Origin: a virus
Length of the DNA: 34,543 nucleotides
UHGV virus genome: UHGV-0068935
Reading direction: 5' to 3' (one strand)
In this document: piece after piece, positions 362 to 34,476 of the stretch
Position numbering within the stretch: the first letter of the stretch is position 1
Layout: each line of letters begins with the position of its first letter
Made by a program: the position numbers and the translations under genes
Notes under the pieces: generated by a model
The model's database searches: none
What the model was told of the DNA's origin: nothing
The model's input: the letters and a program-made list of their open reading frames with translations, nothing else

Positions 362-378
362 CGCCACCCGAAGGTGGC
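362..378. repeat. attL: Putative attL core (CGCCACCCGAAGGTGGC), left copy of 17-bp direct repeat
   Basis: Identical 17-mer recurs at 34460..34476; lies about 90 bp beyond the int stop codon, as expected for a P2-type attL. Confidence 0.45.
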
Positions 379-467
379 ATAGGGGGTAGCATGTACCGCA
401 CCACCCCTTTATATATCAAATAGTTACAAGTTCAAAGTGGTTCGAAATCGTGCCATTTAGTCCCCGT

Positions 468-1463
468 TTATGGGCAAAATCTGGACAACTCCGCAACCGG
501 ATTGAACCTTACCGCGTCCTGGAGATAATCAGGTGCAAAGTGCGCATAGGTCATTGTTTGCTGAATTGTGCTGTGCCCTAAAATACGCTGAAGGGTAATA
601 ATGTTCCCTCCATTTATCATGAAATGAGTTGCGAATGTGTGCCGTAAAACATGCACAGACTGACCGACTGGTAAATCAGGCCGCACAGTCCTTATTGCAC
701 TTCTGACTATCGCATAACTGGGGTTCATTAATCTTCCAGTCGCTTTGACTTTAATCAGAGATTCAAGATCTTTAGCTATAGGAATAACCCGCCGCGATCC
801 ATTCTTTGTCTCCATGAAAATAACCTTCCCACCAATTATGTGTTCACCTTTAATATTGGCAACTTCACCCCAGCGCCCGCCTGTAGCCAGGCTTAACAAT
901 ACAGCCTTAAGATTATCGCCAGATAAAAGTGCGGTTAGCCTGGGAATATCATCATGTGCAAGATAAGCCATTTCCGGCTGATTAATTGTTAGCTTGCGTA
1001 TCTCGTGAAACGGGTTATCACCCACAAACTCTTCAACATCAATCAGCTTTTCAAAGAAACCACTCATCATTGCACAATAACGATTTACCGTTGACTGCTT
1101 AATTCCGCGATTCATTAATTCAAGGCGATATCTGATAATATTTTTTCGGGTTAAGTGGTCACTTCTGTTAATACCAAGCTCTTGCATATCACGAAGAACC
1201 GCTTCAATTCTGACCCGATTCATCGCGCCATAACGATGATTCTTACCGTGGTACACCCACCACAGTTCCAGAAGATCGCTTAACGCTTTACGTTCAATAG
1301 GTTTTTCGACCCAGTCCTTATCGTGATAATGCGTCAGAACATGGCGTTCATACATCGCCGCTTCACCACGGGTAGGAAATCGCCGCCGAAATCTTCTTCC
1401 TTCAGATCCAGCAGGCCGCACGTCCACACAGTATTTGCCATCAGCGAGCTTCTTAATCGACAT
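468..1463 (-). CDS. int: Tyrosine integrase, P2 Int-like
   Basis: N-terminus MSIKKLADGKYCVDVRP and C-terminus HVLRHTFATHFMINGGNIITLQRILGHSTIQQTMTYAHFAPDYLQDA closely match my memory of P2 Int; start set at the internal Met matching the P2 N-terminus (track ORF extends to 1499). Confidence 0.9.
   Translation of the reverse strand: MSIKKLADGKYCVDVRPAGSEGRRFRRRFPTRGEAAMYERHVLTHYHDKDWVEKPIERKALSDLLELWWVYHGKNHRYGAMNRVRIEAVLRDMQELGINRSDHLTRKNIIRYRLELMNRGIKQSTVNRYCAMMSGFFEKLIDVEEFVGDNPFHEIRKLTINQPEMAYLAHDDIPRLTALLSGDNLKAVLLSLATGGRWGEVANIKGEHIIGGKVIFMETKNGSRRVIPIAKDLESLIKVKATGRLMNPSYAIVRSAIRTVRPDLPVGQSVHVLRHTFATHFMINGGNIITLQRILGHSTIQQTMTYAHFAPDYLQDAVRFNPVAELSRFCP
476..489. repeat. Putative Int arm-type site AAAATCTGGACAAC, left copy
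   Basis: 13 of 14 nt identical to AAAATGTGGACAAC at 34401..34414; both sit about 50-110 bp inside the proposed att cores. Confidence 0.3.
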
Positions 1464-1529
1464 AAGGAAGCCCCCCAATGAAAACATCATCTTGATCACA
1501 ATTTTGAGAAATAAAGGCCAGATGGACCG

Positions 1530-1829
1530 TTAACCAGTCTTCTTGCCGGAGTGGGATGATTCCGCTTCGCTTTGCCCAATGTGTGCGAGAGCCGGTACCA
1601 CCTGCCCGGCCTTTGGTTCGACCTCATCGAACAAAAACCAGTCACGGTATTTACGGAAACGAGCGTGCCGCAAAAGAAGGATCCCAAAATCAAGAGGCAT
1701 CTTAGATTTCCCACTTTCATAGCCATGATATGTATAGTAATTAATTCCAATTAAATCAGATAGTTCCTTCATTTTCATCCGTTCGGACTCTCTGATAAGT
1801 TTTAATTTCTCATTTTGCGGTATTGACAT
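1530..1829 (-). CDS. C: Immunity repressor C, P2 C-like (99 aa)
   Basis: C-terminal PALAHIGQSEAESSHSGKKTG matches P2 C (PALAHFGQNETTSPHSGQKTG); HTH in N-terminal half; start at internal Met MSIPQ to give the P2-like length. Confidence 0.85.
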   Translation of the reverse strand: MSIPQNEKLKLIRESERMKMKELSDLIGINYYTYHGYESGKSKMPLDFGILLLRHARFRKYRDWFLFDEVEPKAGQVVPALAHIGQSEAESSHSGKKTG

Positions 1830-1851
1830 AATTTTTCTAATCTCCAATAAT
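1823..1851 (+). promoter_or_regulatory. Putative early promoter Pe (TTGACA-N17-AATAAT) reading into cox
   Basis: Consensus -35 TTGACA at 1823..1828 and AATAAT 17 nt downstream, in the C-cox intergenic switch region; the -35 overlaps the C start codon. Confidence 0.4.
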
Positions 1852-1936
1852 TTTTGTGTATAGCAACACAAGAATAGTCGCAATTGGTTCTACATGGTCC
1901 CTATTCGAAAAAGGGGCCAATAACGGAGGATACCAG

Positions 1937-2362
1937 ATGCAAGAAGTCACTCAAAACGCGCCTGAATCGCCTGCCGAAACACAGTGCGATCAGTTGACAG
2001 ATGCGCCAGAAACCGCACACCTGAAGACCGGCCGCAAAGCCCCTGAACGCCAGGAAATCCGGCTTTCACAAAACCCTTCTCATCTCCTGTCAAAAGAAGG
2101 GTTTGCGATGTATATCGGCAAGACCGTTGACGCCATCGTGAGCATGGCAAAAGCAGGGAAATTACCCGCTGTGTACATGGCGGACCCTCTCAAGCCTGGC
2201 GGAAACGCCGAACTCTACATCAACCGGAAAGCGTGGGATGAAGCCTGCGATCGACTCACTGAAAACGCACCGCAAGAATGGCACGAATGGGAAAACCGAC
2301 TTTTTTTATTTAAGCCAGCAGCTGGTTCACGGAATAAACGCATCAGTAATAAAGCTGCGTGA
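1937..2362 (+). CDS. cox: Cox-like excisionase/early regulator with N-terminal extension
   Basis: Segment FAMYIGKTVDAIVSMAKAGKLPAVYMADPLKPGGNAELYINRKAWDE aligns with P2 Cox (FAKLIGKSTGAVRRMIDKGKLPVIDMTDPQSASGRAGEYWVYLPAWNN); GGAGGA RBS before ATG 1937; protein is about 50 aa longer than P2 Cox. Confidence 0.65.
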   Translation: MQEVTQNAPESPAETQCDQLTDAPETAHLKTGRKAPERQEIRLSQNPSHLLSKEGFAMYIGKTVDAIVSMAKAGKLPAVYMADPLKPGGNAELYINRKAWDEACDRLTENAPQEWHEWENRLFLFKPAAGSRNKRISNKAA

Positions 2363-2392
2363 TATAGAACTGGCAATCATTGGAGGGGCAAG

Positions 2393-2623
2393 ATGATTAA
2401 ACACACGGAAATCAGACAAAGAATAAAAATAAGCGACGACGCTTCAGTAATAATCTGTAATCAGAACTTAGATGCCATTGTTCGGGCTGGCAACGATTTG
2501 TATTTCCATTACCCGACCCATTGCATCGTTGTGACATTTGAAACAGAAGAGTCCTTAAAAAATGCAATGGAGCAGACAGGATTTCAGAATGAAACAGTAA
2601 TAAGAAAAGACAACTGGGCATAA
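2393..2623 (+). CDS. Hypothetical early protein (76 aa)
   Basis: ORF with GGAGG RBS upstream, in early operon. Confidence 0.5.
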   Translation: MIKHTEIRQRIKISDDASVIICNQNLDAIVRAGNDLYFHYPTHCIVVTFETEESLKNAMEQTGFQNETVIRKDNWA

Positions 2624-2675
2624 ATACCAATACACCGTTATTTCAATTCTTTTAACTTAAGCGGGTTTTTCCGAT

Positions 2676-3011
2676 ATGACACAGCGACGCAACTTCCGCA
2701 CTGGCACAGAACGCCACGCAGCCCGTTTCTCAACCAGTGCATCACGCAGCAACACGCACTACAGCCTGCAGGAAACGCACGCCACACCTGACGGGCATCC
2801 GGTTAAACAAACCGGTAAACACACCTGGCTGATTAATGATGCCGGAATTGTCATTCACCGGGGCGCACGCAACCCGATTACCGGGAATACCTGTTACTCC
2901 CTGACTCGCGGAGATGAGCAGTTCGGGCAGGATTTCACCCTGCACGAAGCATTAAGAACGGCAGACCGATTAATCAGCGGTCGCAGTTTTCAGCATCCAT
3001 GGGGGAATTAA
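2676..3011 (+). CDS. Hypothetical early protein (111 aa)
   Basis: ORF in early operon, no recognisable motif. Confidence 0.4.
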   Translation: MTQRRNFRTGTERHAARFSTSASRSNTHYSLQETHATPDGHPVKQTGKHTWLINDAGIVIHRGARNPITGNTCYSLTRGDEQFGQDFTLHEALRTADRLISGRSFQHPWGN

Positions 3012-3014
3012 TAC

Positions 3015-3269
3015 ATGGCAACAACGACAAAAGACATGGCAGAGATAGCATCAGCCTACACAATTATCATACACCGGCTCATAGCTAATAATGCCCGTAA
3101 TGCACTAAATACAGCAAAACCTTTATGGGAAACAAAAAAAGATATCATCAGCGCATTACAGGGGCTACAGAAATGCGCCGACCTCGCAGGCGATTACGCC
3201 GCATACATGGCTATTGAAGACACGATAGAGAAGATTGAATCAGGTAAATCATTAAGCGATTTTGTTTAA
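3015..3269 (+). CDS. Hypothetical early protein (84 aa)
   Basis: Tightly packed ORF in same orientation. Confidence 0.45.
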   Translation: MATTTKDMAEIASAYTIIIHRLIANNARNALNTAKPLWETKKDIISALQGLQKCADLAGDYAAYMAIEDTIEKIESGKSLSDFV

Positions 3270-3289
3270 TTGTTTTCCGGGGAAATACA

Positions 3290-3532
3290 ATGGACAAAGA
3301 ATATAAGGTTCTCATCAATAAAGCCCTTGAGCGCTTTAACTTTCGCCTGAGTATGTCAGGAGTTGCCGCAGAACATGCAGCAAGAGACTCACTGACCAGA
3401 GCAATTCGCAGCCTGTATGATGCAGCTTTTTACGCTGACGATCTGGATGCTCTCAATGAGCTGTCTGAGCTTGTTCGTGATGCAGAATGCGGAGTACATA
3501 TTGAGCCATACGCACTTGGGAATGCAGCATGA
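3290..3532 (+). CDS. Hypothetical early protein (80 aa)
   Basis: ORF in early operon. Confidence 0.45.
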   Translation: MDKEYKVLINKALERFNFRLSMSGVAAEHAARDSLTRAIRSLYDAAFYADDLDALNELSELVRDAECGVHIEPYALGNAA

Positions 3533-3654
3533 GCGTATTTCTTTCATGGGTGATTCTGATTATTTCCGTGCTTATGGCGATTGGCATTATGCGAATTATC
3601 GAAGCGCTGAAAAATATCGAATCTTTATTTACTGGCGAAGAACGCCGTAAATAA
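3529..3654 (+). CDS. Possible small hydrophobic peptide (41 aa, MSVFLSWVILIISVLMAIGIM...)
   Basis: ATGA start/stop overlap with upstream ORF; single predicted TM helix; below the 60-aa cut-off of the ORF track. Confidence 0.25.
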   Translation: MSVFLSWVILIISVLMAIGIMRIIEALKNIESLFTGEERRK

Positions 3655-3733
3655 ATAACCAACCGGACAGAAAACATTAAAACCATCCGCATCTGCGGAG
3701 GGCTTCACTCAATCCAGAAACGGAGAAACAGCT

Positions 3734-4475: not shown

Positions 4476-4501
4476 CCGGAACAGTAACGGAGGTTATCGC
4501 G

Positions 4502-5056
4502 ATGAGACTTACACCTATGGGAATACCGGGCAAAGACCCGGCACATGTGAAGGCGTGGACACAGCAGGAAGATCGGTTACTCATCTCGCTTTATCAGGAA
4601 CACAACACACATCAGATGGCTGAACGAATTCAGCGAACCCGTAAAGCAGTTATGTACCGGATTCGTTTTTTACGTAATCGTGGGCTGATTGGCCGCAAGA
4701 GAAAAGCACCACTGAGTACAGAAGCCATAGCCTTTCTTATTAAAAACCGTCATGTAAAAACCGCACAGGAAATGGCTCTGGAAGTGGGATGCAGTGAGTG
4801 CACAGTGAGGTACACACTGCGTAAACGGGGTTACAACCTGAAAAAATGCGGTGAGAACCACCATTGCGCCAGATACAGCGATCATCTGGTTGAGCTGGTC
4901 ACGGAGCTACGCGACATACACAACATGACGTTCTGCATGATCGCTGAACACATCAACAGCACGATACAGATGCACATTAACGACGATGCGGCGTTTCATC
5001 TCTACCACCGCCGCACCGCAACTGACGCAGTGCTCTGTGAACTGTTACCGGGCTGA
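4502..5056 (+). CDS. Putative DNA-binding protein with two HTH-like segments (184 aa)
   Basis: Basic helix-turn-helix-like segments (RIQRTRKAVMYRIRFLRNRG and AQEMALEVGCSECTVRYTLRKRG); no firm family assignment. Confidence 0.45.
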   Translation: MRLTPMGIPGKDPAHVKAWTQQEDRLLISLYQEHNTHQMAERIQRTRKAVMYRIRFLRNRGLIGRKRKAPLSTEAIAFLIKNRHVKTAQEMALEVGCSECTVRYTLRKRGYNLKKCGENHHCARYSDHLVELVTELRDIHNMTFCMIAEHINSTIQMHINDDAAFHLYHRRTATDAVLCELLPG

Positions 5057-5376
5057 GTGATCATCATGCACACACAAAAAAACCGCTTGCCAGCGTTCGC
5101 CTGGTCGGGTTACAGTTTTCCCGCACCTCATAAAACGGGTGCCGGGATTACCACCCCGCCGACTACAAGAGCGCACAACCGCGCCAGCGGTTTTTTTGTG
5201 CGTACTGTATCGCCACGTCTTTTTCGCGTCAGAATTATGGCGGGGCGTACGGGGCCGACTTCGGTCGGGCCGGGATCTCTTGTAGCCGGTTGTGGTAACC
5301 CTGTACGTCTCGCCACCCTGAGATTACCGCCTCGGGTTGGTGAGTTTTCAGAACTTACTACAAGAGGCCAAACACC

Positions 5377-5604: not shown

Positions 5605-5672
5605 ACAACATCCTGAAGCCATCCCGCACCCGTGCGCGGGAGGCTTCCGCACGTCTGTTACCGGAGGTTCTC

Positions 5673-6083
5673 ATGAAGAGCGTTAAGGGACTTTCAGATA
5701 TTCAGGATTTTTTTAACTGGATGTGGGCAGTGGATCCCCGGCTGGCTTCCCGCCTGAACGACTGGCACGACTATTACCGCCGCGCCTGTAAACAGGCCGC
5801 CAGACACGTCACCACATACGGGGATTTCTCCTTCACCGTTGACGACCGTTACCGCGTGGACGTGAAAGGTGATGGTTTTGGTTTATTTCACATCAACGGA
5901 ACCGACAGCACCGCCATCAGTTGGTCGTCGTCAGAGATGACGCTTGTTCTGGAAATGACAAACCACAGCGTGGCCGTGAAAGGTATATACACCGCAGAAG
6001 ACTTTATCGGTGAATACCAGCGCCTTCTCGTGCTGTACCGCGCGGCGTTTCAGGCGGCGACTGCCGGGGAGTGCGACGCATGA
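5673..6083 (+). CDS. Hypothetical protein (136 aa) immediately upstream of and overlapping A
   Basis: ORF overlapping the A start; position corresponds to the replication-accessory region of P2-like phages. Confidence 0.45.
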   Translation: MKSVKGLSDIQDFFNWMWAVDPRLASRLNDWHDYYRRACKQAARHVTTYGDFSFTVDDRYRVDVKGDGFGLFHINGTDSTAISWSSSEMTLVLEMTNHSVAVKGIYTAEDFIGEYQRLLVLYRAAFQAATAGECDA

Positions 6084-8599
6084 GCGACCATAATGCACAA
6101 CTGGCGTACCCGTGGAACGCCCCGCTACCGGTTATCGATCCTGAAACGTTCGGCAGAGCGCAGCCAACCGCATTACGCCAGGCCATTCAGAGCTACATCA
6201 ACGAGGATATTCGCACTGACGCCAGACTGGATGAAGAAACCGTCGCCTTCCTGACAACCACAGACGAAGGGAAGCGAATTAATTCGCATCTTTACCACGA
6301 CGAAGAGCGTCGGATCAGGCTGGAAAAACTGGCGCGGCACAAACACGAGAATCCGCCAACACTGGTATCTGAAGCCATGGCAGAGCTGCGCGCCCTGCCG
6401 CCGTTTCTTGCCGGTCCGCTCATCCGTGACCTGGCGCGCCTGAGCCGCAAACAGGAGAGCGCACGCCGGGAAGGGCTTAAGAATAACAGCGCATATGCGG
6501 CGGATAACTTCGTTCGTCACGGGCTGCGTGCCCGCCTGAAACGTATCGCCCGTGTGAATGAACGCTTTGCCACCCCGGCCTTTAAGGCCACCGCCGCGCG
6601 CGAACGGCTGGATGAACTGCTTATGCTGCCACAGCTGAGCCGTGACGAAATCCAGCGCCTTGCCACCCTGACCGCCACCGCGTTTTCCACCGCACTGGAG
6701 CGCGCATGTGATGAAGTCATCGAAAAGACCGGCAGGGGTGACGATGACCTGCTCACCTGGTTACTGACCTACCAGCCACTGGCACACATGGCGTTAAAAC
6801 TGGGTATCACGCCACCCTGCTGGCCGTCGCTGGAAATCAGGCCCGACCGCCGCACCGACCCCGACCCGGAACGGGTGCCGGGTGCGGTCATGCGCCTTTC
6901 CTGTGCGACATGGTGGAACAGTCAGTTAAGACACCTCCGGGACATCTGGCGTGAAGAACTGTTACGCGCCGCAGGTCTGGTGTCACGTAAGACATCGGTA
7001 TATATCAGCCATGAAGCGTTACTGGACTGGCGCGAAAAACGCCAGCGCACCCGCGATTTTCTGAAGGCCTGGGACATCGAGAACGAAGAGGGAGAACGGT
7101 TCAGCCTTGAGGATATCTACTGGGCAGGTCTCTCTAATCCGCGTAACCGCCGTAACGAGATGATGACCTGCGCCCGGGGAATGGAGCAGGTCGCCGAAGC
7201 ACGCGGCGACGTGGCGTTTTTCGTCACCGTCACAGCCCCTTCCCGTTTTCACAGCGTGAACGATGACGGCAGCCTGAACCCGAAATACTGCGGAGCAACG
7301 GTACGCGATGCCAGTGATTATCTGGTTTACCGCTTTTTCGCCGCCGTCCGCAGGGCCATCGACAAGGCCGGGCTGGGCTGGTACGGCGTGCGCACCGTGG
7401 AGCCCCACCACGACGGTACACCGCACTGGCACATGCTGGTATTCACCAGCCAGGAAAACGAAGCCCGTATCACTGAAATCATGCGCAACGCCGCCATCAG
7501 GGAGGACCGCGCAGAGCTGGGTGATGATATCTCCCCGCGTTTTAAATGCAAAAAAATCGACCCGGCAAAAGGCACACCGACAAGCTATATCGCGACCTAT
7601 ATCGGTAAGAACCTGGACGCCAGCACCTTCATGGGGAATGACCCGAAAACCGGCAAACCTTACGTCGATAAGGAATCAGGCAAAACCATGGCCGAAACCG
7701 TGGAGAACGCCATCGGCTGGGCAGGCCTTCACCGCATCCACCAGTTCCAGTTCTTCGGTATCCCTCCCCGCCAGGTATGGCGCGAACTCCGCCGTCTTGC
7801 CGGGCAAATGGCCCGTAACCCGGCTGCCCCGCAGCGTCTGGACCATGACGACATTGACGCCATACTGGCCGCCGCCGACGTGGGATGTTTTGCCACCTAT
7901 ATCACCCGCCAGGGTGGTGTGCTCATTCCCCGCAACACGTACCTGGTCCGCACCGCATACGAAACTGCCGAAGAGGCCAACGACTACGGCGAATTCCCGC
8001 AACGCATTTACGGCGTCCGCGCCCCGTCACTCGGGGAGCGCTACACCATATGCACCCACCCGGACACCTGGAAACTGGTCAGACGTAAGCCGGAAAACGA
8101 AGACCGCACGGACGAGGGTTTTGACGTTGAGTGCGGCTTTGCCGCACCTTGGACTCGTGGCAATAACTGTCCCCCTGACCAGAATCTGACCATAAACGAC
8201 CCGCCAGAAAGGCAGCCGGACGGACGCAGGGAGCAGCGACTTACCCTGCCGGAAGGTGATTTGGGTGAATGGTTAAGGTCACTGACCCCTACAGAGCGAA
8301 AACAACTCACCAGGCAGCTGAAAAACCCGCCACCTGACACGGAAACCGTGAAAAACGGCGGCATCAGTGCGCCCGCTGGCGGCGTTCGCGTGAGTGTCGC
8401 ACTGACCGCTGAGCCACACATCACCGCACAAATCACCCGTGAGCTTGATGCTCTGGGCGTGCAGCTGCATGAAAGCGCCGTCGTTTCCGTCCGTCACGGT
8501 GCCCGCGTGCGCCTGGCTGACGGACGCACCGCGTACTGGAATGACAGCACCCGCCGCATTGATATCACCCCCGCACCGAATACGGAAGCGCCACAATGA
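6071..8599 (+). CDS. A: Rolling-circle replication initiator endonuclease, P2 gpA-like (HUH superfamily)
   Basis: HUH motif in EPHHDGTPHWHMLVF and catalytic tyrosine motif SYIATYIGKNLD as in phiX174/P2 A proteins; 842 aa. Confidence 0.85.
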   Translation: MRRMSDHNAQLAYPWNAPLPVIDPETFGRAQPTALRQAIQSYINEDIRTDARLDEETVAFLTTTDEGKRINSHLYHDEERRIRLEKLARHKHENPPTLVSEAMAELRALPPFLAGPLIRDLARLSRKQESARREGLKNNSAYAADNFVRHGLRARLKRIARVNERFATPAFKATAARERLDELLMLPQLSRDEIQRLATLTATAFSTALERACDEVIEKTGRGDDDLLTWLLTYQPLAHMALKLGITPPCWPSLEIRPDRRTDPDPERVPGAVMRLSCATWWNSQLRHLRDIWREELLRAAGLVSRKTSVYISHEALLDWREKRQRTRDFLKAWDIENEEGERFSLEDIYWAGLSNPRNRRNEMMTCARGMEQVAEARGDVAFFVTVTAPSRFHSVNDDGSLNPKYCGATVRDASDYLVYRFFAAVRRAIDKAGLGWYGVRTVEPHHDGTPHWHMLVFTSQENEARITEIMRNAAIREDRAELGDDISPRFKCKKIDPAKGTPTSYIATYIGKNLDASTFMGNDPKTGKPYVDKESGKTMAETVENAIGWAGLHRIHQFQFFGIPPRQVWRELRRLAGQMARNPAAPQRLDHDDIDAILAAADVGCFATYITRQGGVLIPRNTYLVRTAYETAEEANDYGEFPQRIYGVRAPSLGERYTICTHPDTWKLVRRKPENEDRTDEGFDVECGFAAPWTRGNNCPPDQNLTINDPPERQPDGRREQRLTLPEGDLGEWLRSLTPTERKQLTRQLKNPPPDTETVKNGGISAPAGGVRVSVALTAEPHITAQITRELDALGVQLHESAVVSVRHGARVRLADGRTAYWNDSTRRIDITPAPNTEAPQ

Positions 8600-9607: not shown

Positions 9608-9871
9608 TCAGGAACGCCGCGACAGTAGTTCAAGCGCATACCGGCGATCTTCCGGGCACATGGCATCAACAAGAAACTTCACCATATTGCGACCGGAGCG
9701 GGCGCCGGGGCTGAGGGTATGGGAAAAGGTCATCGTACAGACGAAGGTATGCCCGCATTCGACATCACTGCATGCACAGTACAGATCCGCAAGTTCAGGG
9801 GTTTTCCAGTCTGTCTTCCGGATGACAGCAGGTGCGCCACAGTCCGGACACCGGGCTTTAAAAATCCGCAT
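9608..9871 (-). CDS. ogr: Ogr/Delta-family zinc-finger late-gene transcriptional activator
   Basis: C-x2-C-x22-C-x4-C spacing identical to P2 Ogr and the YCACSDVECGHTF motif matching P2 YHQCQNVNCSATF; GGGAGG RBS; start at internal Met MRIFKARCPDCG. Confidence 0.8.
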   Translation of the reverse strand: MRIFKARCPDCGAPAVIRKTDWKTPELADLYCACSDVECGHTFVCTMTFSHTLSPGARSGRNMVKFLVDAMCPEDRRYALELLSRRS

Positions 9872-9908
9872 CTTACCTCCCGATAACACGTATCCCGGGG
9901 AGGACATT

Positions 9909-10961
9909 TTACCCGACCGGCACCGCTTTTTCTTCCGCCACATGCCCGGCATCCACATCAAAACGAAGATAAAGGTGTTCCGGTATATCGGGATCGCTGT
10001 TCACGGCGTTCATGATTTTACGCTGAAGCGGTATCACCTCATCCTTGCGGTACGTTTCACGCGTCGTTTCCGGGTTAGGGATGGTGGCCCCGTTCGTGGG
10101 GATGATCCCCGCAAGACCGGCAGGAAAGCGGTGTGCCGTAAACACATCCTGGGCGCTGATCCCCTTGATGTTTGAAAATTCATCCTTGGCGCTCACCTCA
10201 CCAATCGGAATAATTTTCACCCCATCCGGCGAACCTTTGGGGATGTTGATGTACAGATTGCGGAAATTTCCCAGCCCCTTAGACTCCGCCACCTTCTCGC
10301 GGATCTCATCCTCCATCTCCGTGGTGATCCCCGGGTCGTTCGTATACAGCAAAAACCCCATATGCGCCCCGTTGTTGTAGTAACGGCGACGAAAAAGGCT
10401 GGCCTCGCTGTTCAGCAGCGCCGAGTGAATGCCACCGATATAATCCGGCAGCCCGTAAATTTGCTGACGCGGATCATACATCCGCAGAAAGATAATATCT
10501 TCCGGCGTATAGACCAGCGCGGGGCCTTCCTGAAGCACCACGAACTCACCGGTTTTGCGGCGCCGGAGATACAGCGACGGAAGCGGCTCAAGTGCCACGA
10601 CGTCGCCGAATACGTTACGCACCTTGAGCAGGGCGAGATCGCCGAACAACAGGTAGTCAAATACCGCCTGTTCCATCTGGTCCGTTGTGAGGCCACCACC
10701 GGTATAGCCCCCCGCCACCATGTTACGGCGGGCATACAACACCCCACCGTGCTGGGCGTTAAGGTTCGGGAGCTGCGCCAGTGCCAGGCGGTTAATCGGC
10801 AACTGCCAGTGGTTGTGTTCGTTGTCATACCAGATGTTATGGTAGTCCGTGCCGGTTGTCAGCACCGGTTCCGGCTGGCCAAAGGTGATTGTGCTGCCAC
10901 GTGCGGGCGTGAATGCTTTTTTCGTCACGCGTGACGTTTTGTTTCTGCGTTTCTTGCTCAT
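9909..10961 (-). CDS. Q: Portal protein, P2 gpQ-like
   Basis: 350 aa (P2 Q is 344), immediately downstream of terminase large subunit with ATGA overlap; start taken at internal Met MSKKRRNK. Confidence 0.8.
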   Translation of the reverse strand: MSKKRRNKTSRVTKKAFTPARGSTITFGQPEPVLTTGTDYHNIWYDNEHNHWQLPINRLALAQLPNLNAQHGGVLYARRNMVAGGYTGGGLTTDQMEQAVFDYLLFGDLALLKVRNVFGDVVALEPLPSLYLRRRKTGEFVVLQEGPALVYTPEDIIFLRMYDPRQQIYGLPDYIGGIHSALLNSEASLFRRRYYNNGAHMGFLLYTNDPGITTEMEDEIREKVAESKGLGNFRNLYINIPKGSPDGVKIIPIGEVSAKDEFSNIKGISAQDVFTAHRFPAGLAGIIPTNGATIPNPETTRETYRKDEVIPLQRKIMNAVNSDPDIPEHLYLRFDVDAGHVAEEKAVPVG

Positions 10962-12763
10962 GCGGCTTTCCCGAAGGCCCATGTGGACGGGCGTTCATAG
11001 TCATAATCTACAGGCTCATTAATCACGGCGTGCGAAATGGCAAAAAACACATCCGCATGCCCCGTAACATCCGACCGTTCCGCCACGAACGTCAGCGCGT
11101 TACCGCTTTTTGTGGTGGTGCGGCGTATGGACATGAACGACGCGGGGATCTCCGTGCGTTCACGGCTGGCCTCATCAATGGCGTCTTTCGCCCACTCGAT
11201 ACGCTTATGGGCCACCACGTCTATCATTTTCATCACCAGGCGGTTTTTGCTCTCCACGCTGTAAAGAATGGCGTTAGCCTCACGTGGCGCAAAGCGACTG
11301 ACGATATCAAACACCCCTTTCCCGATACCGGTGATATCTATGCCGATATAGGTAATGTTAAAACGCTGCATCAGTTCGCGGATCTGATCGGCCTGCCAGG
11401 TGAAGTTAAATCCCTGCCACTGCCAGACGGCGAGCACACGGAACCGCTCGCCCTCATGGACAGGCGGAGCCACAATTACAAACGTGGAATTATCCCCGGA
11501 CCTTGACGGGTCAAAGCCCGCCCACACCTCACGATTGCCGAACGGACGTGCCGCCGTGGGATCGTAGTCACCCCACGTCTCCATCTCCACCTCGCACCTG
11601 ACCAGTTCGGAGAACTTAAATACCGCATCCTTGCTGTCAACAAACTCGCAGCCGTACAGCATCGCGTAAGTGGTCGGATTGTAGCGGTTCCTGATACGTT
11701 CAATATCAACCCGAGCAGACAGGCCACCCGCCACCGCCTCTTCCAGCCGGATAATGTAGCGCCAGATCCCGTCAGGGCATTCACAGCCCACACGCATCGC
11801 GCTTTCTTTCGGAAACTCAACAGCACGACGCGCCGGGTCATCCCCGCGCCAGTCGTCACCATTCCAGACCAGATAAGCCTGGTGGGTTTTGGCGCTGGGT
11901 GTGGAAAAATACGTCGTGCGGTATTTGTCGTGGGTCGCCATTGCCGAGGCCACTTCATGCAGTCGCGTGAATTTTGGGATCCAGAACACCTCATCGCCGT
12001 AAAGGTGGCCGTTAAATCCCTGGGCGGTACTGGCATTGGTGGACAGGAAACGCAGCATTGCACCATTGCTCAGACGGATATGCTTACCCGTGAGCGTGAT
12101 CCCGAACTGCAGGGCGAAGTTAATAATATATTCACGGAAGATTTCCGCCTGTACCCGTGACGCAGAAAAGAAAATCTGGTTATCACCGGTCACCACCGCA
12201 TCTTCGAACGCCTCCCATGCAAAATACCAGGTCATGCCGATCTGGCGGCTCTTGAGGATGAAACGGCGCTCACGGTGCCGGTTCTCGCGGCAGTGCAGCT
12301 GGTAGGCATAAAGATTTTTACGCGCCCATTCATCCAGCATTTCAGCAGTCAGTCCGGAAACGTCGTTTTTCCGGTAGCGCCGCTTTTTCCCTTCTCCCCC
12401 GCCGCAGGTCCCCGCAGCCACGCCGTCCTCATGCCCTGCCGGACGCAGGGCGGCAATTTCCGCCATCCTTTCAGCGTGTTTGTTTTTCTGGGCGATGATC
12501 TTCACGTGCTGCGCGATAAGTTCACGCAGTTCGGCAAGTTCACACTCTGTCTTGCCCTCCCGTCCGGTCAGCACATCAATACGCCGGGCGATCACGTCCT
12601 CAACGGATTCAGCGGGCAGCAGGGTAGCCCACTGCCCCACATCACACCAGTGGTAAACCGTGCGCGGCGGAATACCGAGTTCCGCCGCAATATCGCGGGG
12701 GTGCCACCGCTTCAGGTAAAGCGATCGCGCCGCCTCTTTGATTTCATCAGAATATTTAGCCAT
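10958..12763 (-). CDS. P: Terminase large (ATPase) subunit, P2 gpP-like
   Basis: About 600 aa, divergent from the O-N-M-L operon as in P2; start ambiguous (12763 or 12784). Confidence 0.8.
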   Translation of the reverse strand: MAKYSDEIKEAARSLYLKRWHPRDIAAELGIPPRTVYHWCDVGQWATLLPAESVEDVIARRIDVLTGREGKTECELAELRELIAQHVKIIAQKNKHAERMAEIAALRPAGHEDGVAAGTCGGGEGKKRRYRKNDVSGLTAEMLDEWARKNLYAYQLHCRENRHRERRFILKSRQIGMTWYFAWEAFEDAVVTGDNQIFFSASRVQAEIFREYIINFALQFGITLTGKHIRLSNGAMLRFLSTNASTAQGFNGHLYGDEVFWIPKFTRLHEVASAMATHDKYRTTYFSTPSAKTHQAYLVWNGDDWRGDDPARRAVEFPKESAMRVGCECPDGIWRYIIRLEEAVAGGLSARVDIERIRNRYNPTTYAMLYGCEFVDSKDAVFKFSELVRCEVEMETWGDYDPTAARPFGNREVWAGFDPSRSGDNSTFVIVAPPVHEGERFRVLAVWQWQGFNFTWQADQIRELMQRFNITYIGIDITGIGKGVFDIVSRFAPREANAILYSVESKNRLVMKMIDVVAHKRIEWAKDAIDEASRERTEIPASFMSIRRTTTKSGNALTFVAERSDVTGHADVFFAISHAVINEPVDYDYERPSTWAFGKAA

Positions 12764-12811
12764 GCGCCCATTATGGCGGCGCATCCGGCCCGCATTCAGG
12801 CAGAAAATTTC

Positions 12812-21440: not shown

Positions 21441-21441
21441 C

Positions 21442-29094: not shown

Positions 29095-29110
29095 TGGTGA
29101 GGGTATTTTC

Positions 29111-29608: not shown

Positions 29609-29610
29609 CC

Positions 29611-31284
29611 ATGAACCCCACTAAACGTCTGTTACTGGGTAACGACACCATTCAGCTGGTCAGTTGTTCCGTCATGCTTGAGCTGAACGCGTGCGGACGC
29701 GGATTTATCACGGCCAGAACAGAGCAGAACTACACCGGGCGCCCCGTTCGTCTCGATATCGGATACGGAAACGACCTGGTGCGCTGGTTTACCGGATACG
29801 TTGAACGCAGCCAGCCCGCTGAAAACGGCTCGGTGCGACTTCTGATTCGTGAAATGGCGGGGATCCTTGATCACCCCTTCCCCTGTTCATTTCAGCACCC
29901 GACAATGCGCACGGTCACACAGTGGCTGAGTGAGACCAGCGGGCTGGAAATCATCCTGCCGGACAACGCGGCTTACACTGACAGACCCGTTCCGCATTTC
30001 ACACACAGCGGCACGGGCTACGAACTGCTGGCCAGTCTGGGGCGTATTTTCTCCGTACCGGATTACATCTGGCATCCGTTACCGGACGGCGGCATTATGG
30101 CCGCTGCTGCCGCGCAGGGGATGTTTTCCGGTCGCCCCGTCACCATCCCGCACGAGTTCAGCCAGGCATCAACGGGCGGGCACAGTATGACCCTCCCGAT
30201 GATTCAGACGCTGCGACCGGGTGTGGAGGTGAACGGTCAGCGCCTGACGATGGTCATGCTGGAAGATGACAACATGACCATCACGTGGACACCGCGCAAT
30301 AAAGCCACCGGCGCTCCCCTCCAGAAGTCCCCTTTCCGTCGCCAGGCTGAAAAGGCCTTCCCTGAGCTGGCATCAGGGCTTCACCTGCCCAAACTGGCAC
30401 GTGTTGAGGCACCGACCGAAGCCGTCAGCGCGGGCAATATTGCCGACCCGTTCAGACCCCGCTACGCGGTGAATCTCCAGCTGCTTGACGAGAACGGCAA
30501 CCCGGCAGCAGATACGCCCGTCTATAACGCCGTTCCCCTCCCCGTTCCCATGGCGGGCAGTGAGTCCGGCATGTTCCAGTTCCCGCCACCCGGAACCCTG
30601 GTGGAAGTGGGATTTGTGGAAGGCCGGGCGGATAAGCCCTTCATCCGCCAGATAATGGCAGAGGGCCACAATCTGCCCGACGTGAAGCCGGGCGAGCAGT
30701 TGCAGCAACAGCGCGACGGCGTATCGCAGCGCGTGACGGTCGCCGGAGACTGGGAGCGCCAGACAGACCAGCGGATACAGGAGACATCACGCGAGCGCGT
30801 GGTGAGCGCAGACGAGGAAAAGCGGAGCCTGACCAGCCGGGAGACCACCATACAGGCAACCGACACAACCACCGTCCTGGGCGTATCCACGCTTCAGGCT
30901 GGCGCGGTCACCCATATCACTGAAGAGAACTACAGCATCAGCACGGGCGGGCACATGATGGTGGTTGCCGGTACCTGTGAGCGCGACGTGGAAGGCGACA
31001 CCCAGGACACCGTGGGCGGCAGCCTTACCGAAAAGATTAAGGGCGTCCGTCACAGTATTGCGCAGGCGCAGAAGCTGGTTGGCGATACGGTGAAGCTGGG
31101 AAACGAGGGCATTAATGTACTGACCATGCTGACGGACCTTGCCGATGTGGTGGAAGAGCTGGCAGATATTACAGCATCACATACCCACCCAAAAACGGGC
31201 ACGTCTCCGCAGGCCGCACAGTTCAGCCAGGTCGCTCAGGAGTGCCGCCAGCTAAAAAATAAATATTCGCCAATAATCGAATAG
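29611..31284 (+). CDS. Putative baseplate hub / late control D-like tail protein (557 aa)
   Basis: Last gene of late operon, same position as P2 D; assignment by position only. Confidence 0.35.
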   Translation: MNPTKRLLLGNDTIQLVSCSVMLELNACGRGFITARTEQNYTGRPVRLDIGYGNDLVRWFTGYVERSQPAENGSVRLLIREMAGILDHPFPCSFQHPTMRTVTQWLSETSGLEIILPDNAAYTDRPVPHFTHSGTGYELLASLGRIFSVPDYIWHPLPDGGIMAAAAAQGMFSGRPVTIPHEFSQASTGGHSMTLPMIQTLRPGVEVNGQRLTMVMLEDDNMTITWTPRNKATGAPLQKSPFRRQAEKAFPELASGLHLPKLARVEAPTEAVSAGNIADPFRPRYAVNLQLLDENGNPAADTPVYNAVPLPVPMAGSESGMFQFPPPGTLVEVGFVEGRADKPFIRQIMAEGHNLPDVKPGEQLQQQRDGVSQRVTVAGDWERQTDQRIQETSRERVVSADEEKRSLTSRETTIQATDTTTVLGVSTLQAGAVTHITEENYSISTGGHMMVVAGTCERDVEGDTQDTVGGSLTEKIKGVRHSIAQAQKLVGDTVKLGNEGINVLTMLTDLADVVEELADITASHTHPKTGTSPQAAQFSQVAQECRQLKNKYSPIIE

Positions 31285-31298
31285 TTATTCATTTTAAC

Positions 31299-31326
31299 AG
31301 GCCGCGCAATGTGGCCTTTTTTATTC
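31299..31326 (+). terminator. Putative intrinsic terminator after the last tail gene
   Basis: Hairpin AGGCCGCGCAATGTGGCCT followed by TTTTTTATT. Confidence 0.4.
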
Positions 31327-31399
31327 CCCCGATAATAAAAAATATTCATCACAGGACATCACCCGCCACGAAAAAACCGCCCGCAGCAGAAAAAAAGAT

Positions 31400-31995
31400 G
31401 GACGAAACGCCCCACGTAATCCCCACGTAAAACGTCGCGTAACGCCACGTAACGAAGAGATAACCCCGCCAGCCCGATTCGATCCCCTGACATCGGAAAA
31501 CGATTTCTGCGCCCCAAAATCGCCGCAAATGGCCGGAAATTTTCGGGGGCGACGTAACGCGTAAAGTGACGTAATCGGCGCTACCCCGCACACGCCTCCG
31601 GTATTTGTGTACGATAAATTTTGCAAATCGAAAGGGGTGCAAAACACCCCGCCAGGGCGCGCCATTACTGAGGTTTTCCCTTCTGAATGGTTTTGCACTT
31701 TGTGCAAGGTTTTGCAAAAGTGTGCAAAAACTCCGGCTTTCTGAGGATCCCGAAAAATTTTAATGCACTGAATAACAAGAGATTTTTAAAATTACGTCAC
31801 GATCGAAGATCTGAAAAAGGATCCGGCGACGAAAACGAAAAAATCAGGAAAGCCAGAACTGGCGCGGCCTGGCGGGGAGTGGCAGCAAAAATCACTTTTG
31901 CACACTTTTGCACAACTGCTCCGAAAAAGGATGGCGAAGGGGAAGGAAAAACAGCCACGTCATCCGTTGCACGTAACGGACGTAAAAGGTAAATT
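31400..31995. repeat. Repeat-rich non-coding region: phased CGTAA repeats, TTTGCAC/GTGCAAA repeats, GATC cluster
   Basis: At least 9 CGTAA copies in phased groups (10-12 bp spacing at 31414..31453), tandem CTTTTGCACA x2 at 31895..31914, palindrome GGGGTGCAAAACACCCC at 31634..31650, five GATC sites in 31481..31824; no convincing ORF. Confidence 0.45.
31967..31995 (+). promoter_or_regulatory. Putative promoter of hok copy 1 (TTGCAC-N17-TAAATT)
   Basis: Sigma70-like hexamers just upstream of the start of the duplicated hok unit. Confidence 0.3.
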
Positions 31996-32147
31996 ACGCG
32001 CGGGTGCCTTTCGGCTGACGGCTGGAAGGATTACCTGAAGGCCGGATGTGGAAAGGCCCCGAGTCAAACATTTGTTTAACCCGAGGCCCTGACCATCTAC
32101 CTCGCAAGTGGAAGGTTAGCGCCTCCCTGTAAAAGGAGTCAAGCGCT

Positions 32148-32288
32148 ATGCCGCAAAAAACGATCATAGTGAGCATTTTATGCATAACTATTTTGATGAT
32201 TGTCTGGATGATACACAAGTCACCGTGTGAGTTCAGGCTTAACATCATGTGGTCACAATTTGCGGCGTTCTTGCAGTGTAAACAGTAA
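32148..32288 (+). CDS. hok: Hok/Gef-family type I toxin (46 aa, HokA-like)
   Basis: MPQKTIIVSILCITILMIVWMIHKSPCEFRLNIMWSQFAAFLQCKQ matches my memory of HokA (MPQKYRLLSLIVICFTLLFFTWMIRDSLCELHIKQESYELAAFLACKLKE): shared MPQK, TM helix, SxCE and AAFLxCK; AAAAGGAG RBS. Confidence 0.8.
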   Translation: MPQKTIIVSILCITILMIVWMIHKSPCEFRLNIMWSQFAAFLQCKQ

Positions 32289-32378
32289 GAAACCGCAGCG
32301 GGGGTGAAAGCCCCCGCTATCCGGTTGCCGGGTTCGGTCGATATGGCACCCTTTCTCCGTTGGATTACAGACGTATTT

Positions 32379-32401
32379 GCCCGCAATATGCGGGCTTTTT
32401 T
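32379..32401 (+). terminator. Intrinsic terminator of hok copy 1
   Basis: GCCCGCAATATGCGGGC hairpin followed by TTTTTT. Confidence 0.6.
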
Positions 32402-32403
32402 GT

Positions 32404-32607
32404 TCAGTTGTATTTATTGTGGTCGTTACTGGCAGTGGTATTAACTGATTTTGCATGAATAGCACAAATTTTTTCCACGATAACACCACACGCTTCAAGA
32501 TCTTCCGGGCGTGAAACCTTTATTTTTGTAACCGTCTCAGGATTATCAGCCGTTCCACTTTGCACAACCTCAATTTCAATTTTTTTTCTTGAAAGAATCA
32601 TTTTCAT
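32404..32607 (-). CDS. Possible small ORF (67 aa) between the hok copies
   Basis: AT-rich ORF from the track, weak RBS; no recognised motif. Confidence 0.2.
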   Translation of the reverse strand: MKMILSRKKIEIEVVQSGTADNPETVTKIKVSRPEDLEACGVIVEKICAIHAKSVNTTASNDHNKYN

Positions 32608-32686
32608 CGCCCCGACACAGGACAGAGTAAGCCTGTGCGAAAGAATATCACCAGTGCGATAGCGTTGTCTGCTTCAACGCCAGGCA

Positions 32687-32715
32687 TTGCGCACACAAAG
32701 GGAAATCAGTACATT
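32687..32715 (+). promoter_or_regulatory. Putative promoter of hok copy 2 (TTGCGC-N17-TACATT)
   Basis: Same architecture and position as the copy 1 promoter. Confidence 0.3.
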
Positions 32716-32870
32716 ACACGCGGGTGCCTTTCGGCTGATGGCTGGAAGGATTACCTGAAGGCCGGATGTGGAAAGGCCCCGAGTCAACTTAAATGTTAAC
32801 CCGAGGCCCTAACACTTCCTACCGTGACAAGTGGAAGGTTAGCGCCTCCCTGTAAAAGGAGTCAAGCGCT

Positions 32871-33011
32871 ATGCCGCAAAAAACGATCATCGTGAGCATT
32901 TTATGCTTAACCATGTTGTTGACCGTCTGGATGATACACCGTTCTCCGTGTGAGTTCAGACTTAACATCATGTGGTCAGAATTTGCGGCGTTCTTGCAGT
33001 GTAAACCGTAA
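32871..33011 (+). CDS. hok: Hok/Gef-family type I toxin (46 aa), second copy
   Basis: MPQKTIIVSILCLTMLLTVWMIHRSPCEFRLNIMWSEFAAFLQCKP; same RBS and frame as copy 1. Confidence 0.8.
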   Translation: MPQKTIIVSILCLTMLLTVWMIHRSPCEFRLNIMWSEFAAFLQCKP

Positions 33012-33101
33012 GAAACCGCAGCGGGGGTGAAAGCCCCCGCTATCCGGTTGCCGGGTTCGGTCGATATGGCACCCTTTCTCCGTTGAATTACATAGACATT
33101 T

Positions 33102-33134
33102 GCCCGCGATATGCGGGCTATATTTTTATTTTTT
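33102..33134 (+). terminator. Intrinsic terminator of hok copy 2, abutting the stop of the convergent 398-aa gene
   Basis: GCCCGCGATATGCGGGC hairpin followed by T-rich tract. Confidence 0.55.
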
Positions 33135-34322
33135 GAATAGGTTAATAAATTCAGGTTTTTTCTTATCTCCTGCTTCCCTTCGTTTAACCCAACAACACCC
33201 TGACTGAAGTAAACAGACAAATTCATCCTGCTTCAGCTCTAAGGTGTCTTTAAGTTTTAATTGTTTTTTCGCAGCATCAGGAACAAAAACATCAACAATA
33301 ATCTTTCCGGGGTCATACAGTTGAGTTTCAATCAGCACAGGTAATTTATGGACAGGTCTGGGTTCCATACGAGAAAAAGAAAACTCACCATCCATCACAC
33401 CATCAAAAGTACTTACAGAATCGTAACCAGAAAAGCACTCATATTTCACCTGAAGAACAACAGCATCATCAAGCTTTAAAAAATCGCAATAAGAATCATA
33501 CGCCAGGCGATCACTATAAAAAACATCACCGCGATTAAACTGAAAGGAATCCCCTTGCGTCCAAATTTCATAATTAAAAAACTCTGTTTTTACTGGGGTA
33601 AGTTTTATATCCAAAGAATCCTTGTAACACTCTTTTACAGCAAAGCGCCAACCAGCTGCGTAACCATCAACAAATACCGCAATCAACGCATTACTACGGC
33701 GAAACTCCCTTACAGTACGGATAGAAAGCGAGAACTCATCTATCATACTCTTGTAAGTGTTAACATCCTTCTCAAGCGATTTACTGATATCATTCTCAAC
33801 CACGCAGTCTTGCTCAAGAGGAATTTCACCAGTATCAATAAAATTGATAAATTGTTCTTCTGTCAGAATAATTACGCCATAATCGCTGGCTTTCTGAACT
33901 TTCCGCCACCCTTTGTTCTTTCCTACACAAAGGAAAAACAAACTTTTTCCAACATCAGACTTAACATCAATACCATTTTCTTTTGCAAGAGCACTTAAGC
34001 GAGATTTATCAGACTGGTCAAATCCGGTAAAACAAATTGAAATTGAATTCTTTTTGGGTGAAGATTTTCGGGGGGGGGGGGCAATATACTGACTGAAATC
34101 AGTTTCAGACGCAACCTTATTCAACTCCTGGTCGCTAGAAAACATCTGAATAACACGGTCTTTCAAAAAGGTACGAAATGCGCGACGAGTTAAAGAGAAT
34201 CCTTGTAAATAATCCCCTTTTTCAGCCACCTTTATCACGCATTGAGCCGACAACTCCCCTCTACCGTTAACATACAGAAAAAACGCCTCTTTATTTTCGT
34301 TTATCATTTCCCTATCAAACAT
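33126..34322 (-). CDS. Cargo protein with WYL-like N-terminal motif, Pro-rich linker, BRCT-like domain and uncharacterised C-terminal domain (398 aa)
   Basis: Residues about 93-165 (ICFTGFDQSDKSRLSALAKENGIDVKSDVGKSLFFLCVGKNKGWRKVQKASDYGVIILTEEQFINFI) follow the BRCT pattern of the NAD-ligase C-terminus; residues about 37-58 (DYLQGFSLTRRAFRTFLKDRVI) resemble the WYL signature; markedly AT-rich; GGGGG SD-like element upstream. Confidence 0.6.
   Translation of the reverse strand: MFDREMINENKEAFFLYVNGRGELSAQCVIKVAEKGDYLQGFSLTRRAFRTFLKDRVIQMFSSDQELNKVASETDFSQYIAPPPRKSSPKKNSISICFTGFDQSDKSRLSALAKENGIDVKSDVGKSLFFLCVGKNKGWRKVQKASDYGVIILTEEQFINFIDTGEIPLEQDCVVENDISKSLEKDVNTYKSMIDEFSLSIRTVREFRRSNALIAVFVDGYAAGWRFAVKECYKDSLDIKLTPVKTEFFNYEIWTQGDSFQFNRGDVFYSDRLAYDSYCDFLKLDDAVVLQVKYECFSGYDSVSTFDGVMDGEFSFSRMEPRPVHKLPVLIETQLYDPGKIIVDVFVPDAAKKQLKLKDTLELKQDEFVCLLQSGCCWVKRREAGDKKKPEFINLFKK
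34070..34081. repeat. Homopolymeric G tract (about 12 nt; C12 on coding strand) inside the 398-aa gene
   Basis: Run of G in the sequence; the ORF track reads it in frame as Ala-Pro-Pro-Pro-Arg. My hand count of the printed text gave 11 G, but the track translation requires 12, so exact length is uncertain by 1. Confidence 0.75.
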
Positions 34323-34357
34323 AGGACCCCCGTATCAGGCTTAACATTTTGTATATG

Positions 34358-34385
34358 CTTAGCCCGCGAATCATTACGGGCTAAG
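34358..34385. promoter_or_regulatory. Perfect 9-bp inverted repeat (CTTAGCCCG-N10-CGGGCTAAG) upstream of the 398-aa gene
   Basis: Located 36-63 bp upstream of the start codon on the minus strand; operator-like geometry. Confidence 0.3.
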
Positions 34386-34400
34386 ATGTATCGCTATGGC

Positions 34401-34414
34401 AAAATGTGGACAAC
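34401..34414. repeat. Putative Int arm-type site AAAATGTGGACAAC, right copy
   Basis: Near-identical to 476..489; lies 46 bp inside the proposed attR core. Confidence 0.3.
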
Positions 34415-34459
34415 GAGAAAAATAATCCTTTATTTTTCATTGCATTACATCAATTTTCG

Positions 34460-34476
34460 CGCCACCCGAAGGTGGC
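34460..34476. repeat. attR: Putative attR core (CGCCACCCGAAGGTGGC), right copy of 17-bp direct repeat
   Basis: Identical to 362..378; here forms a terminator-like hairpin (CGCCACC-CGAA-GGTGGCG) followed by a T-rich tract. Confidence 0.45.

Follow-up and report, generated by a model that had tools for sequence, protein, structure and literature searches.

A P2-family prophage between ppa and ytfP and its probable integration into a terminator-like hairpin

The virus genome UHGV-0068935 is a stretch of DNA 34,543 nt long, which as a whole is called the window here. Positions 362-34476 are occupied by a P2-family prophage of about 34.1 kb situated between the host genes ppa and ytfP, and comparison with unoccupied genomes identifies these coordinates as the true ends of the element. 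It is highly probable that the prophage was integrated by a P2-type integrase (Int) into the terminator hairpin of ytfP. The ends are fixed to the base, and the main value of this result lies in annotation. The two junctions and the host genes beside them are arranged as follows.

Positions 1-11, plus strand: 3' end of host ppa (inorganic diphosphatase), stop codon at 9-11, from the RefSeq annotation of an identical empty site (L001).
Positions 12-361, no strand: host left flank, ppa-ytfP intergenic DNA that forms a strain-variable slot in genome comparisons.
Positions 362-378, plus strand: attL core CGCCACCCGAAGGTGGC; with the left flank it makes a terminator-like hairpin on the minus strand, which lies downstream of int and runs into UUGUUUUAU.
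Positions 34460-34476, plus strand: attR core; with the right flank it makes a plus-strand terminator-like hairpin followed by CTTTTATTAT.
Positions 34489-34543, minus strand: 3' end of host ytfP, stop codon at 34489-34491, mapped from L001.

The 17-mer CGCCACCCGAAGGTGGC is present in exactly two copies in the window, at 362-378 and 34460-34476, both on the plus strand, as the first-pass annotation of this DNA had proposed. The identity stops at exactly 17 bp, the left copy being flanked by A/A and the right copy by G/G. No third copy was found in the window even when two mismatches were allowed, and the number of matches expected by chance from shuffled sequences is 0.01. A second pair of repeats, AAAATCTGGACAAC at 476-489 and AAAATGTGGACAAC at 34401-34414, also both on the plus strand, is located between the two cores. 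The left 14-mer starts 98 bp past the left core and the right 14-mer ends 45 bp before the right core, in agreement with the 50-110 bp given earlier. A 13/14 match of this kind was reached in none of 300 shuffles of two 150-bp arms. The stop codon of int (468-470) is separated from the left core by 89 nt, where about 90 bp had been estimated, and the left 14-mer falls within the final six codons of int, whose product ends in ELSRFCP.

The empty site was reconstructed by joining window positions 1-378 to 34477-34543, and the resulting 445-nt sequence was searched for in 5426 complete E. coli genomes. It is found as a single ungapped piece with 100% identity in many of them, for example in NZ_AP018784.2, where it falls between ppa and ytfP, and at least 80% of it is covered in 2321 of the 5426. 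The empty sites connect position 378 straight to 34477 without a base gained or lost. A query made from the attR junction (34395-34543) matched through the core and the ytfP flank in all 5426 genomes, and in the prophage-free genomes among the matches listed the alignment starts at query base 66, that is at 34460, the first base of the core. The attR junction including the phage arm is present in 35 genomes and attL with int in 33, giving an occupancy of the site of about 0.6%. Because the empty site is intact at the predicted junction in unoccupied genomes, the boundaries are supported; the first-pass annotation had itself suggested looking for such sites.

The right-end cargo of the prophage differs between lysogens and the left flank also varies between strains, so that the mobile unit might be imagined as larger or smaller than 362-34476, with the block of hok and BRCT genes at the right end, or positions 70-361 at the left, being a separate island that merely abuts it. 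This is scarcely credible, however, given the exact joining of 378 to 34477 in empty sites, the position of the cargo inside attR in every lysogen examined, and the circular genome record of the related phage P88, which includes hok and a further gene. What lies on the left side of attB varies with the strain: chpSB, esiB or licT can be present there. A 29-codon open reading frame at 270-356 in this flank was rejected as a gene, having a stop at codon 3 in the flanks of other strains. No tRNA or tmRNA gene was found in the window, and a target of that type was therefore discarded.

The joined outer flanks form the hairpin ACGCCACC-CGAA-GGTGGCGT with T tracts on both sides. It has a GC-rich stem of 8 bp and a loop of 4 nt (UUCG in the sense of ytfP) and is situated about 10 nt past the ytfP stop codon. 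Read in the direction of ytfP it runs into UUGUUUUAU, and read the other way into CUUUUAUUAU, the corresponding U tracts being TGTTTTATGC and GCTTTTATTA. The folding energies calculated for the two senses of attB are -19.9 and -17.4 kcal/mol; relative to shuffled sequences the z-scores are -3.8 and -4.4, and a scan with a terminator consensus scored attB on both strands. These predictions support the description of attB as a bidirectional hairpin resembling an intrinsic terminator, and to that extent the earlier proposal that the core is an intrinsic terminator is upheld. The same annotation had the hairpin being rebuilt by the joining of the flanks. The hairpin with the CGAA loop does arise in this way, but attL and attR each already keep a version of 6-9 bp, and it is the flanking T/A tracts that are separated by integration. 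In the lysogen, attL is terminator-like on the minus strand only, behind int, and attR on the plus strand only; in the ytfP sense the attR hairpin is followed by CGAAAAUUGAUG. A crossover within a bidirectional terminator would thus leave each junction with only its outward-facing terminator.

In some strains, such as L002 (NZ_CP128255.1), a 1.6-kb cassette containing esiB, which encodes a secretory IgA-binding protein, lies between ppa and ytfP. It is bordered by two copies of the attB terminator hairpin, at 3365-3381 and 5020-5036, and the loop of the first copy has the variant sequence CGCA. Such bordering by a second hairpin copy is what a repeat element might display, and attB could then be a palindromic protein-binding or repeat element targeted only for its dyad symmetry. 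Nevertheless, the second copy in L002 stands directly behind the end of the esiB gene and runs into a T run, and the stem, the UUCG loop, the UUGUUUUAU that follows, the short distance from the ytfP stop and the z-scores all favor a terminator, leaving the alternative with little probability.

The limits of the crossover into the terminator-like hairpin can be drawn from natural variation. The phage site attP was rebuilt from the attL and attR sequences of seven lysogens and that of P88 was added, giving eight attP alleles. The identity between attP and attB extends over the following lengths.

17 bp: the window and lysogens L003, L045 and L050.
15 bp: L048 and L049.
14 bp: P88.
12 bp: L047.
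11 bp: L044.

All of these blocks nest around the 11-bp sequence CACCCGAAGGT, which spans the hairpin loop CGAA and the inner part of the stem. Because the nested identity shrinks to 11 bp across the eight alleles, strand exchange would be confined to CACCCGAAGGT, provided that the flanking differences predate integration. The allele series from 17 to 11 bp thus yields a limit for the crossover directly from natural sequences, with no experiment needed.

The attP site extends from about -65 to +126, counted from the first core base. It contains the following elements, which adjoin or overlap the int gene on the left and reach the cargo genes on the right.

Positions 468-1463, minus strand: int, P2-type tyrosine integrase of 331 aa (Pfam Int_N E=1.1e-19, Phage_integrase E=3.3e-15).
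Positions 469-487, plus strand: P' arm-type sites TATGGGCA (469-476) and TCTGGACA (480-487), 11 bp apart, overlapping the int stop and last codons.
Positions 414-426, plus strand: predicted site for integration host factor (IHF) TATCAAATAGTTA, a perfect match to the consensus WATCAANNNNTTR, conserved in all eight attP alleles.
Positions 383-407, minus strand: second hairpin in the P' arm, directly beside the core; in P88 a hairpin of different sequence takes the same position.
Positions 34395-34412, plus strand: P arm-type sites TATGGCAA (34395-34402) and TGTGGACA (34405-34412), 10 bp apart, the outermost conserved element of attP.
Positions 34418-34442, plus strand: A/T-rich block AAAAATAATCCTTTATTTTTCATTG between the P arm sites and the core, presumed to be a bending or IHF region, conserved in the eight alleles.

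The 14-bp repeats had been interpreted as integrase arm sites. They agree with the P2-type arm-site consensus tgTGGaCa (Nilsson et al. 2011, PMC3448106) and are conserved in the alignment of the eight attP alleles even where the neighboring cargo differs, which supports their assignment as putative Int arm-binding sites. The arm element is not simply the 14-mer, however: the repeat is real, but each copy is only the inner member of a tandem pair of sites, and the outer half-sites fit tgTGGaCa at only 5-6 of 8 positions. On the P side, homology with L045, which carries different cargo, starts at the arm repeat, showing that the repeat marks the outer edge of attP. The integrase itself has Y, D and R at residues 11, 14 and 16 (GKYCVDVR), with the same 3+2 spacing as alignment positions 16, 19 and 21, the register being assumed by analogy with the P2-type Int of NC_070906. 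An N-terminal Y/D/R, as opposed to W/E/Y, has been proposed to separate P2-type from 186-type arm binding (PMC3448106).

The 14-mers might instead have other functions, the left copy simply encoding the C-terminus of Int, within whose last six codons it lies, and the right copy being, for example, the -35 box of an outward promoter, as a weak sigma-70-like match (TGGACA-18-TATTTT) overlaps it. This is very unlikely. The right copy is non-coding and yet is retained in eight alleles, although the DNA beyond it is unrelated in L045. Both copies fit the P2 arm consensus and belong to tandem pairs spaced by 10-11 bp as in a P2-type attP, whose own P' pair likewise extends into the end of int, and the match was absent from all 300 shuffles.

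At +53 the predicted IHF site reads TATCAA(A/T)TAGTTA across the alleles, with one A/T-variable position. The AAAAATAATCCTTTATTTTTCATTG block resembles the matching stretch of a P2-type attP, and the TTTTCG that adjoins the core is conserved in the eight alleles. The hairpin at 383-407 is stable; on the int transcript it precedes the core hairpin by 3-4 nt. A hairpin occupies the same place in two Int subtypes, that of the window and that of L004 (at about 20-50), with unrelated sequences: GGGGUGGU...GCUACCCC in the former and GGGAGGCC...GGCCUCC in the latter. A search for repeats resembling cox boxes recognized none in attP: attP and the C/cox switch region have no more k-mers in common than shuffled sequences do, and no Rfam family was reported at the att sites.

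The integration can be pictured as follows. A tyrosine integrase of the P2 type would have recombined attP with attB, the bidirectional hairpin of terminator type that follows the ytfP stop codon at a distance of about 10 nt. The stem arms of the hairpin would serve as dyad-symmetric core-type Int sites, with cleavage and strand exchange taking place inside CACCCGAAGGT, in the loop and inner stem. On the phage side Int would bind the tandem pairs of arm sites in attP, which also has the consensus IHF site and the conserved A/T-rich block. Excision of the prophage would presumably require Int, IHF and the prophage Cox protein, as in P2. After integration attL would retain a terminator that faces outwards behind int and attR one that faces outwards towards ytfP, assuming that these hairpins terminate transcription in vivo, while the two inward-facing directions would lose their U tracts.

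Several observations weigh against this account. Two lysogens have one mismatch between their attL and attR cores inside the 11-bp block: the attR core of L003 reads CACCGGAAGGT, and L045 has the variant CACCCGCAGGT, which is also present as a host allele in L002. Either heterology at integration or later mutation could have given rise to these mismatches, and the sequences do not decide between them. Because the P' arm repeat overlaps the int coding sequence, coding constraint accounts for part of its conservation, and the argument depends mainly on the non-coding copy in the P arm. The terminator function is a prediction. The excised form is documented only by the P88 record and paper, and a contiguous attP junction of the ytfP type was not found in IMG/VR or in JGI metagenome contigs, which is weak evidence; a looser scan of IMG/VR returned only another attL (L005). 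Finally, the tail-fibre gene is split into a pseudogene in the two closest relatives, L003 and L050, showing that some members of the lineage are defective.

The missing attP junction in the viral and metagenome collections and the disrupted tail-fibre gene of the nearest relatives would also be expected if the boundaries were right but the prophage were a fixed, defective relic and its repeats historical scars. This is a serious alternative, though an unlikely one. The two cores of the window are perfect 17-bp copies. The reading frames of int, cox, C, gpA, portal, terminase and capsid are full length, and that of the tail fibre is intact at 686 aa. The catalytic motifs of Int can be read in alignments, and the related phage P88 is inducible.

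The genes of the element were identified from the annotation of a near-identical prophage in NZ_CP148318.1 and from Pfam and PHROG searches of the open reading frames of the window. Apart from int, the principal features are the following.

Positions 1530-1883, minus strand: candidate C-type immunity repressor with a helix-turn-helix (HTH), leftward, upstream of int (weak Pfam HTH_19 match below the curated cut-off; the homologues are HTH regulators).
Positions 1937-2362, plus strand: Cox family protein, presumed to act as directionality factor in excision and as repressor of the switch (Pfam Phage_Cox E=1.6e-27 and the annotation of relatives).
Positions 6071-8599, plus strand: gpA-family replication endonuclease (Pfam Phage_GPA E=3.5e-105).
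Positions 9608-31284, no strand: late region with a GC content of 55-63% (Pfam, PHROG and the annotation of relatives).
Positions 9608-9961, minus strand: ogr.
Positions 9909-10982, minus strand: portal.
Positions 10958-12784, minus strand: large terminase.
After the terminase, within 9608-31284, plus strand: scaffold, P2-family capsid, gpM, sheath, tape measure, baseplate and tail fibre.

The early genes comprise int, the HTH repressor, Cox, DUF4761, DUF4754 and the gpA replication endonuclease. The late genes comprise ogr, portal, large terminase, the GPO scaffold, the P2-family capsid, gpM, sheath, tape measure, baseplate and tail fibre. This gene set is typical of the P2 family, and by its gene content the element is a complete-looking P2-family (Peduoviridae) prophage. 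The catalytic residues R...K...HxxR...H...Y of Int appear in the motifs TGGRWGE, KTKNG, HVLRHTF, LGH and TYAHF. The protein is 80% identical to the Int of P88 and 58% identical to the Int of NC_070906, a record labelled Peduovirus P2. In a collection with one genome per species the best match to Int had 54% identity, and no other species was shown to use the ytfP site.

By megablast, no sequenced phage aligns with more than about 10% of the genome. The GC content of 55-63% in the late region compares with 40-49% at both ends, and the AT-richer module of int, C, cox and attP (379-2400 and 34390-34459) stands out from the late backbone (9600-31300) as part of a mosaic. The backbone with 55-63% GC, a DUF2586-type sheath and an HP1_ORF34 baseplate is shared by the window, L003, L050 and L047. 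L045, a prophage with the canonical P2 late-gene order, has an identical integrase protein (WP_001561241.1) and the same attP arms. Because Int and the arms recur on this different backbone, the int/att module has, on the comparison of these prophages, been exchanged between at least two late-gene backbones, and it illustrates module exchange in Peduoviridae.

The early region also varies. Positions 1662-1916 of the window do not align with 2460-2713 of L003, a relative that is otherwise 98% identical; the unaligned part covers the N-terminal half of the C repressor and the C/cox switch, which suggests a different immunity specificity. Two RNA families score above the Rfam gathering threshold on the plus strand, isrK at 5123-5197 (65 bits) and C4 antisense RNA at 5233-5320 (80 bits). 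They lie side by side upstream of the homologue of a protein that is annotated "derepression protein" in relatives, an arrangement that resembles the antisense immunity module of the P1/P7 type but occurs in a P2-family prophage.

The region between the end of the last baseplate gene (31284) and attR contains an open reading frame of 101 aa without a family match, two hok/gef loci and an open reading frame of 398 aa with a BRCT domain. The last three are positioned as follows.

Positions 32148-32288, plus strand: hok/gef toxin reading frame, copy 1, in a 723-nt tandem duplication (Pfam HOK_GEF).
Positions 32871-33011, plus strand: hok/gef toxin reading frame, copy 2 (Pfam HOK_GEF).
Positions 33126-34322, minus strand: cargo gene, oriented like ytfP; its 398-aa product has a Pfam BRCT domain (residues 91-160).

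The hok loci and the BRCT gene all lie inside attR, as had been proposed, and are thereby placed among the phage cargo. The two hok frames score 26.0 and 27.8 bits for HOK_GEF against a cut-off of 22, and the duplication (31989-32404 and 32709-33127) has a period of 720-723 nt and an identity of 92-96%. No Rfam antisense-RNA family reached threshold at the hok loci. Most related prophages at the ytfP site have a single hok adjoining attR. The cargo slot varies among lysogens, containing hok alone, hok with yidD and DUF4177, the YafO toxin, or other genes, but in every lysogen examined it is situated between the late genes and the conserved P arm.

The earlier label of the 398-aa protein as a WYL protein is not supported by Pfam. 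Its Pfam matches are BRCT (E=1.3e-8) and PTCB-BRCT only, with no WYL domain even at E<=10, though the N-terminal 80 or so residues may have a distant WYL-like fold. The single PADLOC match, to candidate PDC-S48, is weak and confined to the BRCT domain, and the PDB sequence matches are to the BRCT domains of ligase and RFC only. The protein belongs to phrog_36782 (function unknown). Its N-terminal part of about 170 aa has 28-36% identity to proteins of P2-like phages of Escherichia, Yersinia, Burkholderia and Vibrio, and in several of these records a gene for late control D or for a late transcriptional activator is the neighbor of the match, which suggests that the relatives occupy the same right-end cargo slot. 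A tract of 12 G residues (34070-34081), which encodes PPP, is located in the linker before the BRCT domain. The homopolymer has 15 G residues in L003 (34403-34417; this prophage is 98.7% identical) and 12 in L050 (33428-33439), both in frame. The tract may be a hot spot for slipped-strand mispairing or may make the cargo gene phase-variable.

Transcripts that run out of the prophage should still be terminated, whereas those that run into it, from ytfP or the left flank, would meet a hairpin lacking a U tract. The cargo gene nearest to attR points the same way as ytfP in the window, L003 and L050 (the BRCT gene), in L044 and L047 (DUF4177, yidD), in L048 and L049, and in P88 (gp53); in L045 it does not. 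Immediately inside the P arm, P88 and L048 show a hairpin of terminator type on the minus strand; none was detected in the window. Functional read-through at attR is a possibility. One may go further and speculate that integration rewires transcription at both junctions, coupling the cargo to the host operon and int to the state of integration, although this must be considered improbable. If it were true, the tamAB-ytfP transcript would lose its U tract at attR and read into the co-oriented BRCT gene first, and the int mRNA would gain the host U tract only when the phage is integrated, producing a sib-like, state-dependent 3' end. Through lysogeny a host envelope operon would then become coupled to a variable cargo gene, and the expression of int would become coupled to the integration state.

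The att core had already been published in 2017 for P88, a chemically induced, infectious phage whose attP is given as the 14-bp GCCACCCGAAGGTG (Front Microbiol 2017, PMC5285337), so that the present finding is correct but ordinary and will not surprise phage biologists. The string GCCACCCGAAGGTG is nested inside the 17-mer CGCCACCCGAAGGTGGC and was found in the open-access literature searched only in that paper, which gives the 14-mer alone. In the same literature no paper was found that names ytfP as a prophage integration site or its terminator as the target. The host site at the ytfP terminator, the 11-bp limit of the crossover, the paired arm sites and the direction-specific retention of the terminators are descriptive additions. 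A small integrase and attP pair, with a target in all 5426 E. coli genomes examined, could also serve as a tool for chromosomal integration.

The P88 record (NC_026014, Xuanwuvirus) begins at the core, and at its two ends the arm motifs recur with the distances that they have in the window. As in the window, the arm repeats are at -54 and about +120, the IHF consensus is at +53/54, there is an A/T-rich block and a hairpin beside the core, Int is 80% identical, the genes are ordered int-C-cox-...-gpA, and hok adjoins the P arm. The window differs in its GC-rich late module with the DUF2586-type sheath and HP1_ORF34 baseplate, in having ogr next to the portal gene, in an attB identity of 17 rather than 14 bp, and in its own cargo of two hok loci and the BRCT protein; only about 10% of the genome of the window aligns with P88 by megablast. 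These comparisons make the prophage one more member of the P2 family, mosaic in make-up and equipped with an integrase and core of the P88 type.

The system of P2, with Int, IHF and Cox (PMC3448106), has in common with that of the window an arm-binding Int N-terminus with Y/D/R, two tandem arm repeats in each arm, a P' pair that overlaps the end of int (NC_070906 attP), integration at an intergenic site other than a tRNA gene, and a Cox-family gene divergent from C and int. The core and the host site are different, Int is 58% identical (NC_070906), and the Cox protein of the window is larger, with 141 aa.

The use of a hairpin as target also has counterparts outside the P2 type. Phage integrases that target tRNA or tmRNA genes, such as those of 186, HP1 and Fels-2, use a host stem-loop as a symmetric core. 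In these systems, as in the window, the phage copy of the core largely restores the host structure at one junction. The target in the window is, however, the terminator of a protein-coding operon, and only 11-17 bp are duplicated. As the U tracts are not included in the duplication, each junction would terminate transcription in one direction only. The sib site of phage lambda is an RNase III target that retroregulates int and is lost on integration. As in lambda, the 3' end of the int transcript in the window would differ between phage and prophage, with a crossover located between int and downstream RNA signals, but in the window the host U tract would be gained on integration.

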